Shown one piece after another: positions 44,364-52,841 of a stretch of DNA of 64,000 bases (the stretch's first letter is position 1; every line of letters starts with the position of its first letter). The notes under the pieces were generated by a model, which ran no database searches, was not told the origin of the DNA, and saw nothing but the letters and a program-made list of their open reading frames with translations. Origin of the DNA: Lingula anatina (taxonomy: Eukaryota; Animalia; Brachiopoda). The stretch is taken from contig CM120643.1 in assembly GCA_051362555.1 (NCBI GenBank), forward strand, positions 16,992,848-17,056,847, given 5' to 3'. The position numbers and the translations under genes were made by a program.

Positions 44364-45262
44364 TACGGAGCTTTGTTAGTATCATATTAACTTTTTTTTA
44401 TTTTCATTTAAGTTTTATTTTATGGAATTTTCACCGCGGTGAAAATTATTTTCACCGCGGTGAAAATAATTTACACCGCGGTGGAAAATAATTTACACCG
44501 CGGTGGAAAATAATTTTCACCGCGGTGGAAAATAATTTTCACCGCGGTGGTAATTCCTGGCCATCTCGGCCCGGGTGATGCATACATGTAGTATATGCGA
44601 ATCCAAAATTTACCAGATGTCTGGGAAGGAAGTTGATTAAGACAAGCACATGCACATGCACGCGGTTTAACCGGTCTATGTGCCAATCATCCCAGGAATG
44701 TGGAGGAAGCGGGCAGTATTCGAATAGATTAAAAACCACCGAAATGCTGCAATGTTGTACGTCGTTTTTCCCTTTATAATAACTTGCGTATTATTGGGGA
44801 TATTGGTAGAAAGAAACCTCTCCGAAGAAACCGAGATTACATCTATTAAGATAAGATCTATGGGCAAACACATCACACGAATATTTAAAAATACATTGTC
44901 CAAAAATAACATTAAGTATTTAGTAATTACAATGGGATTCCCTTTGCATAAAACTGCAAGCGGGACTTTAATTATATAGGTGGTAAATATAGATGGGAAA
45001 CCTAAGTTAACGGCAGTGGCCCCACGAACAGATCCTCCAACCTTGTGTGTATGTAACAATAGTATGCACCGTGACGGCATCTGGCAAATGTAAGGTTCTC
45101 ATTAACTATTCATCACCCGGGCCGAGATGGCCAGGAATTACCACCGCGGTGAAAATTATTTTCCACCGCGGTGAAAATTATTTTCACCGCGGTGAAAATT
45201 CCATAAAATAAAACTTAAATGAAAATAAAAAAAAGTTAATATGATACTAACAAAGCTCCGTA
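44364..45262. mobile_element. Non-autonomous TIR DNA transposon, IS3EU-like (899 bp)
   Basis: Termini TACGGAGCTTTG...CAAAGCTCCGTA with a 6-bp TSD ATATTC (44358-44363, 45263-45268). Long near-perfect TIRs at 44364-44580 and 45111-45262. TAY..RTA ends with a 6-bp TSD match the Repbase IS3EU definition as recalled; the superfamily label is an inference. Confidence 0.85.
44428..44550. repeat. Subterminal tandem array of about 22-bp units with palindromic core CACCGCGGTG (6 copies)
   Basis: Six CACCGCGGTG cores in the left TIR and three in the right TIR (45142-45194). Confidence 0.9.
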
Positions 45263-45554: not shown

Positions 45555-45914
45555 ACGTGTCCCACTGGTTTCCTATTTCAATTACTGACACCATAACCAG
45601 GGTAATCAGCATTTCATTAAAGCTGGCAAACCTCTACTATACCTAACAGAGTTCACCCATGTGACATTTAGAGCACTGGAGTCTTGCTTCCGTTCCCATC
45701 TTATAACTTGACTTGCACAAGGGGTGTGTGGTGATGAAGGGGAGAGGGGGGGTATCAAACCTATAAAAATGACTGTTTTCAAAACTTTCAGTTAATGCCC
45801 AATCTTTTCCTTTGCTTGTCGTTCAAAATTATGTATCAGTCATTAACTCCTCTTACTTCAAATTTATTATTTGGCTTTGCATGAATATGAAATTAAATTA
45901 AATAAATGCTATAT

Positions 45915-46025
45915 AATTCAAAAATTAAACGAAACTTACCTGTAAGTTGATGTTTGATTGTAATTCTATGAGACAATTATAGGTGAGGAGATGAAATGAG
46001 AATGCACAGTGCGCATGCGCGTCAG
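45915..46025. repeat. DIRS 3' terminus: terminal extension plus 35-bp ITR core
   Basis: 45991-46025 ATGAAATGAGAATGCACAGTGCGCATGCGCGTCAG is the reverse complement of 50469-50503. Confidence 0.9.
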
Positions 46026-46140
46026 GTTTTTAAAGCATTTTTGCATGATTTCTACAGAAGTTTAATATTAAACTTCATTCCCTAATAATAGTCTGCATCA
46101 GTATTATCATAAGGTACACAATTAGGGAGGGTGGGAGAGG

Positions 46141-46263
46141 CATTTCATCTCCTCACCTATAATTGTCTCATAGAATTACAATCAAACATCAACTTACAGG
46201 TAAGTTTCGTTTAATTTTTGAATTCTATATCGAACAATTATATTGGTTCGTCATGAAATGAGA
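46141..46263. repeat. DIRS internal complementary region (ICR)
   Basis: 46141-46224 is the exact reverse complement of 45915-45998 (84 bp). 46222-46263 is the exact reverse complement of 50493-50534 (42 bp). The two halves overlap at ATT (46222-46224). Confidence 0.95.
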
Positions 46264-46377
46264 CTTTAAAGCACAAATCATGCAAAAATAACAACGTAAA
46301 ATCACGTTTAAATTCGAACAAGAAAACTTTATTGGTTATCAAACAGATAAGTACTAGCAGTTAATAAATGAACTGAC

Positions 46378-47598
46378 TTAAGACCTTTGCTTATCCAATT
46401 CAAGTACAGCTTTCACTACTGTGTCATTTTTGACTATTTCTTTGTCATAAAATCTTGTAAATGTACTCTTATTTGACCAACCAGCATGTTTCATTATATC
46501 CGCAAGAGGGACATCCATCAGTTTAGCTTTAGAGGTTGTTGCTGCTCTCACACTATGAGCACCATACTTCACAGTATCTATTCCTGATCTTATTAAGACC
46601 ACTTTAATCCACCGTGCAACAGTGTCCTTTGACACTGCTTTATGTGGTTTTCTGAAACTTATCAACAACCTGTTTTCTTTACTGTCTCTCAACATTTTAG
46701 TACGTTTCAAGTACTCTTTCATGACAGTGTACACACAGAGTCTCCTATCAGGAGGGTAAGCTCTTAAATGAACTTTGGAAAAATGAACTCCTGGTCTACT
46801 TTGCTTAATCAAACCATCACAACAGAAAACATATTCAGACGTTAACTTTTTAAAATTCTTAACAGTCAACAAGTGTACAGTCTGAATCCTGGCAGCATTT
46901 ACTAATGCAATAAGCATAGCAAGTTTCAAAGTCAAGTCTTTCAAACTAATATTACGCACAGGTGACAATTTGCGCAAATAACATAAAACTTGATCAACAT
47001 CCCAAATATCCATATATCTACTTGTAGATGGGCGTAGATTAAATACACCTTTCATAAAACGGATAACTTGTGGGTGCGATCCTGCTGTATACTGTTCCAG
47101 TAAAATTCCAAGTGATGACAGGGCACTCCTGGCTGTGTTCAAGGAACTATATCCTAAGCCCTTGTTATACAGTTCAGTCAAAAACTCAATAACATCATTT
47201 ACAGAAACATAAAATGAATTAATACTCCGTTCGCAACAGAACTGAAACCATTTTGATAAATATGTCTTGTACTGACATTTAGTCTTTGCTCTCCATGATG
47301 CCATAAAAATGTTGATTGATTGTTCTGAAAATCCACGGTCTCTAAAAGACTTCCTGATAACTTGCATGCAATCAAGGTCATTTGATTGGATAGAGGATGA
47401 ACTTTCTCTGAAAACTGCAGCATTAAAGTTTCTTCCACTGGTGGTAAAATCAAAGGAGCTTTCACCAGCATTTGCATCAACATTGGCCACCATATTTGTG
47501 TTGTCCACAGTGGTACCACCATAAGAGCTCTTGCTTTGTCTGTTTTTATTTTCTGCAGACACCTTGTTATAAGGCTGAAAGGAGGAAAAATATAACAA
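46378..47598 (-). CDS. DIRS tyrosine recombinase (YR)
   Basis: 406-aa ORF with a core-binding region (SWR..T..QY....KW..FC...LGYSSLNTARSALS). Catalytic set: R (NAAR), K (LIKQSRPG), HxxR (HSVR), W (AGW), Y (TRFY). Overlaps the 3' end of pol by 400 nt. The start is uncertain (TTG; first ATG at codon 37, or spliced). Confidence 0.95.
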   Translation of the reverse strand: MLYFSSFQPYNKVSAENKNRQSKSSYGGTTVDNTNMVANVDANAGESSFDFTTSGRNFNAAVFRESSSSIQSNDLDCMQVIRKSFRDRGFSEQSINIFMASWRAKTKCQYKTYLSKWFQFCCERSINSFYVSVNDVIEFLTELYNKGLGYSSLNTARSALSSLGILLEQYTAGSHPQVIRFMKGVFNLRPSTSRYMDIWDVDQVLCYLRKLSPVRNISLKDLTLKLAMLIALVNAARIQTVHLLTVKNFKKLTSEYVFCCDGLIKQSRPGVHFSKVHLRAYPPDRRLCVYTVMKEYLKRTKMLRDSKENRLLISFRKPHKAVSKDTVARWIKVVLIRSGIDTVKYGAHSVRAATTSKAKLMDVPLADIMKHAGWSNKSTFTRFYDKEIVKNDTVVKAVLELDKQRS

Positions 47599-49265
47599 AG
47601 TTCAAAATTTTTCCAATTTAAACTGAATGCATCAATAAATGTGGCATCAGGATCTGGTGTCCAAGAACAAAATTGTTCTACTTTTTTGTTTATTCTTGTT
47701 GCAAATAAGTCAACTGTAGGCTGACCATAATGTTCACATATCTTAGTGAATATAACATTTTGTAATTCCCACTCAATATTATCGTTAAATCTTCGTGAAG
47801 GCTCATCTGCTTCATTCTGAATACCTGGTATATGTGAACATATAATCCAAATGTTATGTTTTATACACATATTCCAAATTTGTTTGCTGAGTTCATCACA
47901 ACTTGGAGATTTAATTCCCCCAAAGTTATTTATGTATGCAACAGCAGTAGAGGAATCAGTTAATATTTTTATATATTTTCCCTCTATCTGTGACAAAAAG
48001 GACTTCAAAGCAAACAAAACAGCACGTAATTCTAGGACATTTATGTGACTTCTTGACTCAAAATTAGTCCATCTGCCACCTATTTTAATGTCATTCATGA
48101 CTGCACCCCAGCCAAGCATACTGCTATCAGTCTGTATAGTAAGCTCGGGATTTTCTCTACGAATAACCCGTACCTGTGTTTCAATATTTTCTATCCACCA
48201 CTGAAGTTCTGATTTCATATCAATTGTGATATGCATCTTAGCATTAAAATTGCATTTATTTAGTTTCAATGCATTTATTTTTGCCTTTTCCAGTACTCTG
48301 TAATGAAGTTTTCCTAACTCAACTGCTGAGAAGGAGGCAACTAAAAGTCCAATAACTTTAGCCACTTGTCTGATCGTTTCAAATTCACAACAATGCAATT
48401 TTAAACATGCATCCTTTATTTTATTCTTTCTTTCATTTGGTAAATATACCAACATCTTTTCAGAGTCAATTATATTCCCCAAGTAGGTAATCTGCCTAGA
48501 TGGCAAGAGCATACTTTTTTCAAAATTTATCATAAATCCTAGCTTGGATAGCAGACTGATAGTAGCATGTGCATTTCTCACACAAAGCTCACTAGTCTCA
48601 GCACCTAACAGAGTATCATCAATGTATGAGGTGCTAATGTAACCTTTATTACGTAACCAAGCATACACAGGTTTCATTAACTTGGTAAAAAGGCGCGGAC
48701 CTGGGCCAACCCCATTTGGCATTGCCCTGTACTGATATATTTGTCCTCTCCATTTAAAACAAAAATATTTTTGTTGTTCAACTGCCAGAGGTATTGAATA
48801 ATATGCCATACGTATATCTACTGAACAAAAATACATATTTTTTGAAACAATATGCAGTGCACTTTCAAAATTTTCCATCTTAAAATGATGATATGGAAGA
48901 AACATGTTTAATTTCTTCAAATTTAGAATCATTCTAAATTCTCCATTTTTCTTCTTGGTTAAGAAAATAGGTGAAAGATACTGGTCAGTTTGATAGCTCA
49001 CAGGCATAATAACTTTATCTCTGACCAATTTAGCTATTTCATTATCAATTACTTCACTCTCAAGTCTGTTAAAACTAGATTGAGAGAAACTATGTTGCAT
49101 AGGCAGAGCACTTTCACTAAAATCAAAGTGGCAATGTTTCACTATGTCAAGAATATTTTCGTCATGTGTAATGGTTTCCCATTGAGAGGAAAAATATTTC
49201 AATCTACCTCCAACTTTATAATCTACTAGGGTACTTACCCTATTTATTTTGGGTCCTTGCGCCAA
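47199..49265 (-). CDS. DIRS pol: reverse transcriptase + RNase H + Dam-like N6-adenine methyltransferase domain
   Basis: 688-aa ORF. RT motifs VGGRL..F...W, SPIFL..KK.G.FRMILNLK.LN, HFKME, D...AYY, MPNG and YIDD. RNase H motifs TDSSMLGWGA, HINVLELRAV, TDS.TAVAYIN and HIPG.QN.AD..SR. MT motifs VDLFAT, DAFSLNW, YIFPPFS and VPLW..Q.WWP. The track start is TTG, not ATG. Confidence 0.96.
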   Translation of the reverse strand: MAQGPKINRVSTLVDYKVGGRLKYFSSQWETITHDENILDIVKHCHFDFSESALPMQHSFSQSSFNRLESEVIDNEIAKLVRDKVIMPVSYQTDQYLSPIFLTKKKNGEFRMILNLKKLNMFLPYHHFKMENFESALHIVSKNMYFCSVDIRMAYYSIPLAVEQQKYFCFKWRGQIYQYRAMPNGVGPGPRLFTKLMKPVYAWLRNKGYISTSYIDDTLLGAETSELCVRNAHATISLLSKLGFMINFEKSMLLPSRQITYLGNIIDSEKMLVYLPNERKNKIKDACLKLHCCEFETIRQVAKVIGLLVASFSAVELGKLHYRVLEKAKINALKLNKCNFNAKMHITIDMKSELQWWIENIETQVRVIRRENPELTIQTDSSMLGWGAVMNDIKIGGRWTNFESRSHINVLELRAVLFALKSFLSQIEGKYIKILTDSSTAVAYINNFGGIKSPSCDELSKQIWNMCIKHNIWIICSHIPGIQNEADEPSRRFNDNIEWELQNVIFTKICEHYGQPTVDLFATRINKKVEQFCSWTPDPDATFIDAFSLNWKNFELCYIFPPFSLITRCLQKIKTDKARALMVVPLWTTQIWWPMLMQMLVKAPLILPPVEETLMLQFSEKVHPLSNQMTLIACKLSGSLLETVDFQNNQSTFLWHHGEQRLNVSTRHIYQNGFSSVANGVLIHFMFL

Positions 49266-50347
49266 ACTCCCTTTTTTGGCTCACTGCCACGGGTCGTCTG
49301 ATACCCTGAGAACTTTTCAGTGTACCTGCCTTGCTGTTTTCCAGCATACTTGGCTTGCCCGGTATAAAAAGTCTTGTTTTTACCGAGTCTATAGTTTCCT
49401 TTATAGACCTCTCTTTTGCCTTGAATTTTATTGCCTATTTTGGCTGAGTATTCCAACTCTCTGGCCGTTTGTGAGACATCATCGCCAAACAGTTCAGTGG
49501 TAAATGGTACAGCAGGATTACACAAATGACTGTACTCCTTACTGATGATAGGCTTAATGCAATTTCTCCTGATCATACACATCTGTTGATTACAGTGTCC
49601 AAAGAGAGCCAATGCATCTTTGCATAAATCCAATACACTATTAGCTTCCCCTTGAATGTCATACTCTGACTCCGAGCCTGACTGAAAACCAGAAAAATCA
49701 AGTTCAGCGATCTTACTTGCTGCTTGTGCAATAAGTATGGAGCCTTTCACCAGAGAGGTGCCCACTGTCTGCAGCGTTCTGTCTGTGTGTCTGATTTGCG
49801 GTGTGCATAGCTTCCAAATTAGCTTATTGCAACGTACGGTGGTAAGTGCTTGGCAATTGTCTGGCCTAGCAATACTGTCAGTCAACTTTTCAAACTGAGT
49901 CTCCTCCAATCCCTGGCGAAACAAATCATTAATATTTGCTGCCAGTGTTTCATCCAAGGGAGGGCCCACAACGTCTTCCCCTTTAAACCGCTTGGCCATA
50001 TCCGCAAATTTGCTTTGGGGATCTACCTCATTCTCAAGAGGTCGCTTAGCATCAGAACACCGACTATCGTTGTCAAAGTCGTAGTCAAAAGACGTGCCAG
50101 GTAAAACGTCCCTGTTCACAGTTTCTTCAATATCCGTTATCCTAGAGGATAACACGTCTAATTTGGCATCATTAGACGTCAGTTTTTCATTCAGACTTTG
50201 CAAGTATTCTAGAATCTTAGAATCTTGGTTAGTTGCGGTTTTCGCAGCAACACCAGTGGTCTTTACAACAGCACTAGTTGATTTCTTATTTCTAGCGACT
50301 TGTTTCTCTTTCAAGTCTTTCTCCGCTGTCTCATTTTTCTCCGACAT
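49244..50347 (-). CDS. DIRS ORF1 gag-like protein (about 367 aa from MSEKNE)
   Basis: ORF-track 49244..50485 is open. Best ATG is at 50347 (context CCAACATGT); the upstream extension overlaps the ITR. Motifs RPDNC..L....N..IW, DALALFGH.N....RR..IKP....Y..LC and ELFGDD are typical of DIRS gag. Confidence 0.85.
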   Translation of the reverse strand: MSEKNETAEKDLKEKQVARNKKSTSAVVKTTGVAAKTATNQDSKILEYLQSLNEKLTSNDAKLDVLSSRITDIEETVNRDVLPGTSFDYDFDNDSRCSDAKRPLENEVDPQSKFADMAKRFKGEDVVGPPLDETLAANINDLFRQGLEETQFEKLTDSIARPDNCQALTTVRCNKLIWKLCTPQIRHTDRTLQTVGTSLVKGSILIAQAASKIAELDFSGFQSGSESEYDIQGEANSVLDLCKDALALFGHCNQQMCMIRRNCIKPIISKEYSHLCNPAVPFTTELFGDDVSQTARELEYSAKIGNKIQGKREVYKGNYRLGKNKTFYTGQAKYAGKQQGRYTEKFSGYQTTRGSEPKKGVWRKDPK

Positions 50348-50468
50348 GTTGGAGAAAAGATGTATTGTCAGAAAAACGACAAAATACACCAATGTATAGA
50401 CAAAAAAGTCAAAATCCATACACAGAAGAAAATTTTCTTCTGAACCACGCGCTTCTCGCCTCGTGCTA

Positions 50469-50534
50469 CTGACGCGCATGCGCACTGTGCATTCTCATTT
50501 CATGACGAACCAATATAATTGTTCGATATAGAAT
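50469..50534. repeat. DIRS 5' terminus: ITR core plus terminal segment
   Basis: Inverted match to 45991-46025 and to ICR 46222-46263. Contains CGCGCATGCGCA, an NRF1-type motif. Confidence 0.9.
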
Positions 50535-52841
50535 CCAATCATGACTAGCCTAGCTGATTGGAATCAGTCAATGTGGATTCACTCACTGCTTAATGAGGTA
50601 TGCCGAGAAGACATAAGAACAACTAGAACTAATGCAAAGCAAAACAATAAGTCTGATATACTGACTCCAAAAGCCCTTGAATCAGAAGCTCTTTCGAATA
50701 AGGTGAAACAAAAAACCTGATAAATCCAAAATAATTCAATTTTTACAGGCATATGCCGACTTTCTATGGCAAAAGATTTTATCTAGCAAATTTTGTATTG
50801 CATTCCAATCCATCTCCTTCATCTAATTAACTTAAGATTACCTTATGATGAACTTTTGATTACATGAAATCCTAATTAAGATTTGAGTTAATTTCCAGAA
50901 TAAAAGATGAGACCTAATGGAATCATTCACTAAACAATATTGTATTGAGTAAAATTCATTTATATAACATTTTTAAAAGCCACAATATCTTATACATATA
51001 AAACTAAAATATAAGAATGTCCAGTGATATCAAACACTCCAAGAGAAAATTACAGACTGCATGGATTTCTAAAATTTCTCCAAAACCGTGATAAGAATTT
51101 CTTAATATAAATTACATCTTTTTACTATTATACAAGTGTTAGAGAGTACACAAGTAACCTGAATGTACTGTGTAATATTACCCTTAGTATGCTTAAGGCT
51201 TTCAAACTTAAGTGATGAAACTAGCTCAACCTGTTTGGTAAATAGAATTGGTAGTTTTATTTTTCCATGCCAGCCAAGCACAAAGACAACCCTGGGACTA
51301 ATGGGGAAAATGATTTAAAAAATTGGTGAACCTGTTTTTGGACACAGGTAAAATTTTTTTTTTATTATCATTATTTTTTTCTAACCAGTTTTGCTTTAAT
51401 TTCTCTCTCTTATTTTGGGCAATTATCTGAGATATAATTCCCTTAGGAGTGCAATTTCTCATGAGTAGCAATGAATAAAAAGAAATAGTGACTGTCACCA
51501 TTTTGTGAACATTTCTGAAATGTTTTATCAACACTTCATTGGTTTTGTAAATTTTGCTAATGTTAAAATTTTGAACTTTTTGGCAAAGACAAAATCTTAA
51601 GTAGAACATAGTCCACTCAGCTTTGAACATAACATGTGGGTAACCAAAGAGTACAACCCCATCCAACACTTGATACACGGGGTGGTCCTATCACAAAATC
51701 ATTAGGTACTTATCTGTAACCTGACTCTACCTATATAGCTGGGTACTTAATTCACTACTTAAGTACTGATATTATGACTACCTTCTGTGTAGTACATTAA
51801 GAAAGAGAGAGAGGGAGAAAGAGACAGAGAATTTAACTGAATGCCCTGTTATAGTTTCAATCATTGTGCATTATCCCACTTCTTCAATATCATATGTTTG
51901 CTGGAAATAACAGAGATATGCTGATCATTCAGTAAGTTTCCAGTAATCTATGAATCTTGGAATGCAATTTCATCTTTAACTTCAATTCTACTACTGTAGC
52001 AGTACTTGTAGTACATTTGTACCTGTAATAATAGGGAAATTTATATTACTCTGTTTTTCCAATATATCCACTGGTGTTTTTAAAATCAACAACAATGTTA
52101 TTCAATGCACCTATGTATCAGATCAATAATTACAAGTATAATTGGTTTTGTAAAACTAAATACTCTTGGAATCTTCTGATTTCACCACTTTTCAAACCAC
52201 TGCAGATTAAGGAACAGTCTCCGATATTCAGCGGACTTTATAGAACCAGTGAAATAAAATATACCATTCTTCTGTTTTGGACTCCCTTAGTGTCTCTAAC
52301 ACACCCTTTAAATTTGGACAGATTACTTTACACTGGATGGATCATCTTCCTTTTGTGTTCAGTCTTCTGCGCTATGACCACAGGTCAGGCTTCTCAAATG
52401 GTCACTGCATGTGGCTAAGGAGGTCAGAATGACCACACAAAATCAATTATTGTAATAAATAGAAGAATGGCTAGAGTTTCACTAACTGCTACATAATGAT
52501 GACTATTTTATCTAAGATAAGACTTCATGTAGAACTGTCTTGCAACATGACACCTGGTGGAAAATGTGAAAAATTAAGATCAAATGTAATACCTTTCCAA
52601 ATATCAAGAAATGATACTAGCATATCACTGATAACTGTTTCAGTGCATTCATCTAACTCTAAATGAATATTTGACAAGATATAGTTTTGTGAGTATCACC
52701 AATAACTCATAAGAAAAAGAAAAGAAAAGAAACTATTCTTCTCATAAAATAGCATCACCCAAAGGAAAAAAATAGTTTTTCTTAAAAGTGAACTAATTAA
52801 GCTTGTCACAAAGACAGTTACAGATTTCCAGTCTTTTCAAA

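Follow-up and report, generated by a model that had tools for sequence, protein, structure and literature searches.

DIRS1-like retrotransposons carry gag, a pol frame for reverse transcriptase, RNase H and a methyltransferase (RT/RH/MT), and an overlapping tyrosine recombinase (YR) frame, together with inverted termini and an internal complementary region (ICR) (PMC3266345, PMC9210276, PMC7192593); ATT ends with an AAT circular junction are given for many DIRS elements in PMC3266345. The accessible sections of these three papers give no mechanism for translating the overlapping YR frame, and splicing goes unmentioned in those of PMC3266345 and PMC9210276 and in that of PMC7192593 refers to a marker intron. 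Likewise, no splice or frameshift of the kind reported below is described for DIRS1-like elements in the accessible sections of PMC8547959, PMC3783388, PMC6681497 and bioRxiv 10.64898/2026.05.21.726589, nor did we find one in the full-text literature searched, a scope outside which lie Poulter and Goodwin 2005, Poulter and Butler 2015, the Repbase reports and supplements.

The element analyzed here lies in a 64-kb stretch of Lingula anatina DNA (the window). It resembles the published DIRS1-like elements in its gag, pol and overlapping YR and in its inverted termini, ICR, ATT ends and AAT junction, and is unlike their accessible descriptions in having a conserved internal intron and a predicted slippery site. 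Three other systems invite comparison. For Ngaro elements, Poulter and Butler 2015, as quoted in the accessible part of PMC13003380, proposed that YR is produced by a programmed frameshift in the RT/RH-YR overlap; a recoding step is thus invoked there for the YR ORF, whereas here the frameshift signal is at the gag/pol boundary and YR is reached by removal of a pol intron, not by a pol/YR slip. In Drosophila gypsy and the retroviruses, a frameshift from gag gives access to pol, and a spliced RNA to env, the third ORF, but the env mRNA lacks gag and pol (PMC4276936, in the part accessible), and the third ORF here is predicted to be expressed as a Gag fusion. Since our donor lies 3' of the gag stop, the spliced DIRS1-like RNA retains all of gag and the frameshift site, unlike an env mRNA. 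Finally, the plant Ty1/Copia shGAG RNA is, according to the accessible part of PMC5580714, a conserved alternative splice that balances structural and catalytic proteins; there, splicing is coupled to premature termination and yields Gag only, whereas here one enzyme would be swapped for another in frame.

An intron in the pol gene of a DIRS1-like element

The element, of which the window holds one copy, is DIRS1-like: it has a gag-like ORF, a pol with RT, RNase H and methyltransferase, an overlapping YR, inverted terminal repeats, an ICR complementary to both ends and a 3-bp circular junction (Table 1). Assignment to the PAT-like or Ngaro-like class was considered and rejected, as split direct repeats are absent and the repeats present are inverted termini and an ICR, the ends being free of any long direct repeat. 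Pfam matches RVT_1 (E 1e-19) on pol, where RNase H (E 3e-4) and Dam (E 9e-6) both fall below the curated cut-off, and Phage_int_SAM_1 (E 4e-5) and Phage_integrase (E 6e-6) on YR; it finds no match for the gag ORF and no DDE integrase or protease family anywhere in the element. The gag ORF does resemble the N-terminal part of P0061, a natural gag-pol fusion (E 2e-22), and the gag parts of related elements, and the protein matches include named relatives from Mytilus, Mya, Exaiptasia and Montipora. The YR ORF opens at 47601 and overlaps pol over 47601-47199. The ORFs are intact and the family is transcribed, with mobilization putatively by reverse transcription and YR integration; loose read ends occur at the element borders, at 50534 (run X1) and at 45912/45913 (run X6).

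Table 1. Coordinates of the element and its features, as window positions; a slash in a motif marks the splice junction.
Feature	Positions	Strand	Basis or remark
Intact DIRS1-like retrotransposon, 4620 bp, ATT at both ends	45915..50534	(-)	repeats; ends from ICR complementarity
Left terminus	50469..50534	(-)	outer part complements left ICR; inner part inverted to 45991-46025
gag ORF, 367 aa	49244..50347	(-)	ATG 50347, TAA 49246-49244
pol ORF, 693 codons stop to stop	47199..49280	(-)	RT (YIDD), RNase H, Dam-like methyltransferase
pol-frame stub common to both RNA forms; 14 codons, without ATG	49239..49280	(-)	ORF translation
Predicted -1 slippery heptamer A_AAA_AAG, gag frame	49271..49277	(-)	equivalents in relatives; frameshifting predicted
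Weak predicted hairpin, possible frameshift stimulator	49251..49270	(-)	z -1.13, 50 nt after heptamer
5' splice site AGG/GTAAGT	49233..49241	(-)	intron start 49238; pol phase 0
GT-AG intron, 1664 nt	47575..49238	(-)	junction reads, low depth; holds RT, RNase H, first methyltransferase part
Polypyrimidine tract and CAG acceptor	47575..47595	(-)	encoded by pol-frame codons of methyltransferase motif FPPFS
Recombinase exon, 398 codons	46378..47574	(-)	SAM-like domain and tyrosine recombinase, R/HxxR/W/Y motifs
ICR, circular junction AAT at 46224-46222	46141..46263	(-)	repeats
Right terminus	45915..46025	(-)	repeats; second donor-like motif CAG/GTAAGT at 45939

The sequence-only reading of this DNA had proposed that an intron with a donor 5 nt past the gag stop and an acceptor at the start of YR, each on a codon boundary, joins the pol-frame stub in frame to YR once its 1664 nt are removed. 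The coordinates hold on every point: the donor lies 5 nt past the gag TAA, the acceptor (TATATTTTTCCTCCTTTCAG/) ends at 47575 behind a zone free of AG back to 47624, and both junctions are in phase 0, the first of pol and the second of YR. GTAAGT occurs once in the coding body and twice more in the 3' terminal repeats, and AGGTAAGT occurs 3 times in the 64-kb window, counting both strands. A predicted short hairpin (49233-49244) contains the donor; its conservation in relatives is not evident.

The same reading had called for a junction search in RNA, and the intron proved real. Eight of nine RNA runs from the same species were aligned at 90% likeness, with 6-30% of each run read, and 5 reads in 2 of the 8 runs skip exactly from 47574 to 49239. 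The ends of the skip are CT..AC on the plus strand, that is GT..AG on the minus strand, and the first mate lies on the plus strand, so that, given the usual stranded library, the reads represent sense RNA. Run X4 contributes 1 junction read, with 72 letters on its short side, and run X5 contributes 4 reads with 4 starts, which may be 2 fragments. Runs X1 and X7 have 0 reads of this skip, and in runs X6, X2, X3 and X9 it is not listed, where 1-2 reads may be present, since a joint is listed from 3 reads at 2 starts upward. GT-AG splicing from 49238 to 47575 thus occurs in RNA, and the locus has a GT donor, polypyrimidine tract, YAG acceptor and removal from RNA, as a GT-AG spliceosomal intron should. 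Depth is low throughout, and at 90% likeness reads may derive from further members of the family. The summed sense depth of the intron (2.33) is below that of gag (7.36) and of YR (16.21); the YR value may be raised partly by 3' bias and truncated copies. In run X5, the intron has zero depth and both flanks about 2.3.

Two further kinds of read were seen. Foreign upstream sequence is joined at the YR acceptor (window 47577) in 4 reads of X4 and 6 reads of X6, which suggests that in some copy a different donor is spliced to this acceptor as well; the foreign sequence is probably a host exon or other donor spliced into a diverged copy. In addition, 3 reads of X4 skip 452 nt (46427-46878) with GT..AA ends, removing the YR catalytic region, and likely reflect either a copy with a deletion or minor splicing of a diverged copy.

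Conservation of donor, acceptor and YR frame

Related elements were collected with an alignment query made of the window pol and 64 of 120 listed homologues. The best 80 of 366 metagenome loci and 8 contigs from genome bins were retrieved and grouped into 50 families at 80% nucleotide identity, with a median pairwise pol identity of 46% (48 representatives and the window); because the families are related, p-values from such counts overstate independence. Viral contigs gave no relatives by either single protein or alignment query. The genome-bin contigs (L081-L088) are DIRS elements in bacterial bins labelled Sedimenticola and Anaerolineae, probably mis-binned host DNA.

Splice donors follow the consensus MAG/GTRAGT, and we scored matches to it 160-30 nt upstream of a conserved pol Trp. 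A donor with at least 7 of 9 matches is present in 44 of 48 families (2 families could not be mapped), and in all 44 a top-scoring site falls in pol phase 0. The background in the pol body is 0.08 sites per 130 nt. A CAG/GTAGAT-type site 26 nt before the Trp was set aside: it is written by A-G-R codons and lies in phase 1, within the last 30 nt omitted from scoring. Four of the 48 families (L046, L064, L075 and L084) have no 7/9 donor near the pol start, two of them with gag and pol in one frame. The families of this in-frame type are three (L026, L064 and L084), of which L026 retains a phase-0 donor near the pol start; in L064 and L084 the only candidate phase-0 donors lie farther from the anchor, 384 and 552 nt upstream. 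Together with P0061, these three families imply that a Gag-Pol fusion is tolerated.

At the other end of the intron, 46 families reach the methyltransferase motif and 4 end short of it. A YAG is found at the Ser codon following PPF in 40 of the 46, where the ratio of AGY to TCN codons is 39:2, versus 584:1618 for the other serines of pol, with AGG in one family. Among the 6 families that lack this acceptor, 4 carry, 12 nt downstream, a YAG in the same phase (versus 6 of the 40 that have it); in the remaining two, which look decayed, the YR frame is interrupted by stops. After exclusion of 4 families in which YR could not be mapped and 2 with a frameshift, 40 families have YR in frame, and in 37 of these the YR frame is free of stops from the junction to the SAM-like domain, about 101 codons; the third frame is stop-free in 0/40, and so is the YR frame ahead of the junction. 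The opening of the YR frame precedes the acceptor by a median of 9 codons. To judge from sequence comparison, then, the splice is conserved in related families, with its donor, its acceptor and its phase match, as the sequence-only reading had asked of a functional intron.

Entry into the stub and a proposed expression plan

That reading had also assigned RT-RNase H-MT to unspliced and YR to spliced RNA through one shared upstream entry. The RNA splice and its conservation support the assignment, with translation still predicted, but the stub has no ATG and the entry route was left unstated; in its place we propose a frameshift from gag. In nearly all loci, pol is in the -1 frame of gag. A -1 frameshift signal is an X_XXY_YYZ heptamer in the zero frame within the -1 overlap, and the window copy has one, A_AAA_AAG, 3 nt past the opening of the pol frame and 39 nt before the donor. 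Among the 44 families with a separate gag of at least 50 codons, 39 have, within the overlap, a homopolymer slippery heptamer that is in the gag frame (versus 1.4 expected from the rest of gag), and 41 have some X_XXY_YYZ. The commonest types, A_AAA_AAC (22) and T_TTT_TTA (13), are both scattered over the tree. The window heptamer ends in G, and its two nearest relatives have C; A_AAA_AAG is the weaker slippery site in eukaryotes. Single-sequence folding of the relatives gave a modest shift, with a mean z of -1.12 after the heptamer versus -0.19 (21/41 below -1 versus 9/40), and showed no conserved stimulatory structure. Overall, the conserved features suggest that ribosomes enter the stub from gag by a -1 frameshift at A_AAA_AAG, in which case both enzymes would be Gag fusions.

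Consider ribosomes that translate gag on either RNA. The majority would halt at the gag TAA and release Gag (367 aa). A minority would slip by -1 at the heptamer into the 14-codon stub, and then, on unspliced RNA, read on into RT-RNase H-methyltransferase to give a Gag-Pol of about 1049 aa (359+690) or, on spliced RNA, into the recombinase to give a Gag-YR of about 768 aa (359+11+398). How often the RNA is spliced would determine the ratio of RT to YR as well as the amount of full-length template available, and fusion to Gag would carry both enzymes into the particle. We believe it quite probable that the intron is spliced from part of the RNA in this manner, with a -1 frameshift likely feeding both forms, Gag-Pol and Gag-recombinase. 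A search for longer YR-containing proteins returned 15 matches, mostly RT-YR gene models or frameshifted copies; among them, the Daphnia magna RefSeq model XP_045023289.1 (P0132) is a fusion of YR with a gag-like part (HMM E 3e-7) and has no RT match. Such a model agrees with Gag-YR, although the element is distant and its annotation automatic.

In 41 of 41 families, the gag stop sits downstream of the heptamer and upstream of the donor, at a distance of 2-44 nt from the junction; this is inside the 50-55 nt limit beyond which a stop ahead of a junction invites nonsense-mediated decay (NMD). A control on the position of the stop was not significant (0 stops in 331 gag-frame codons versus 3 in 331 of the third frame, p 0.25), so that protection of the spliced RNA from NMD stands as a suggestion. 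We lean, with more reserve, toward the broader view that the animal DIRS1-like plan is ancient: a single -1 frameshift where gag ends, followed by an alternative intron, with PPF serving as acceptor and a gag stop less than 50 nt from the junction guarding against NMD.

If the plan is correct, the integration enzyme would be a Gag fusion of about 770 aa, which bears on DIRS recombinase expression and on DIRS-based integration assays, and splicing would be a possible point of host control over DIRS elements. The splice acceptor would add a second reason for the conservation of the methyltransferase PPF-S codons. In this context, the model offers a concrete, RNA-supported mechanism for a start-less overlapping YR ORF, and names the bases to mutate.

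Alternative explanations and motifs at the element ends

The splice could be functional and YR still a free protein, translated by reinitiation after gag or by internal entry at a Met in the stub or the YR exon. Splicing does place YR just behind the gag stop, and some YR-frame ATG precedes the SAM domain in 35 of 40 families, often near codons 69 and 90 (here, a good-context ATG at 47493); a pol-frame ATG precedes the donor in only 6 of 41 families and is absent in the window copy. We nonetheless think a free YR improbable, for it leaves unexplained the fixed donor phase (44/48) and a YR frame open from the junction (37/40), 5 of 40 families lack any ATG ahead of the SAM domain, and in the window copy the first ATG past the junction (47522) is out of frame, with 20 ATGs upstream. 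The spliced RNA might instead serve mainly to make excess Gag, or be a host silencing or cryptic product, with YR made otherwise, for example by a second frameshift in the pol/YR overlap such as the Ngaro proposal quoted in the accessible part of PMC13003380. The spliced RNA encodes full Gag, splicing for surplus Gag is known from plant Ty1/Copia shGAG (PMC5580714, part accessible), the pyrimidine tract of the acceptor is a by-product of the FPPF codons, and the foreign sequence found at the YR acceptor would suit a cryptic product. At the same time, the protein does not demand the AG choice at the Ser codon (39:2), a lost acceptor moves in phase, the donor phase is kept where the protein sequence is not conserved, and the YR frame opens just ahead of the acceptor. 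Such an explanation seems to us still less probable than a free YR; excess Gag and Gag-YR are in any case compatible, both probably being made from the spliced RNA.

The junction reads could also come from a genomic copy without the 1664 nt, a deletion or retro-copy, the intact copies being unspliced now. All junction evidence is from RNA runs at 90% likeness, and reads of diverged or rearranged copies are indeed present (other letters, loose ends, the 452-nt non-canonical skip). But the skip falls exactly at a GT and an AG predicted beforehand and conserved across families of 46% median identity, and a copy lacking precisely the intron would be a trace of earlier splicing; we consider this source very unlikely. 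Splicing of intact copies with frameshift entry from gag is the reading that we retain.

A second donor-like motif, G/GTAAGT, lies on the minus strand at 45933-45942, about 25 nt inside the right end, and is mirrored in the ICR near 46197-46205. Motif and mirror are found in 17 of 23 families with a 3' tail of at least 400 nt, window included, and no splice from the right-end motif appears among the RNA reads. It could bind U1 snRNP for 3' end control, or form part of the recombinase site. The flanks of the element (50535-50540 and 45909-45914) resemble its own circular junction, with TTG before and TATA after ATT, which suggests a target preference beyond 3 bp. Elsewhere in the window, at 44364-45262, a foldback- or MITE-like element spans about 900 bp, and its inverted arms of 103 nt consist of palindromic tandem units 21-22 nt long.
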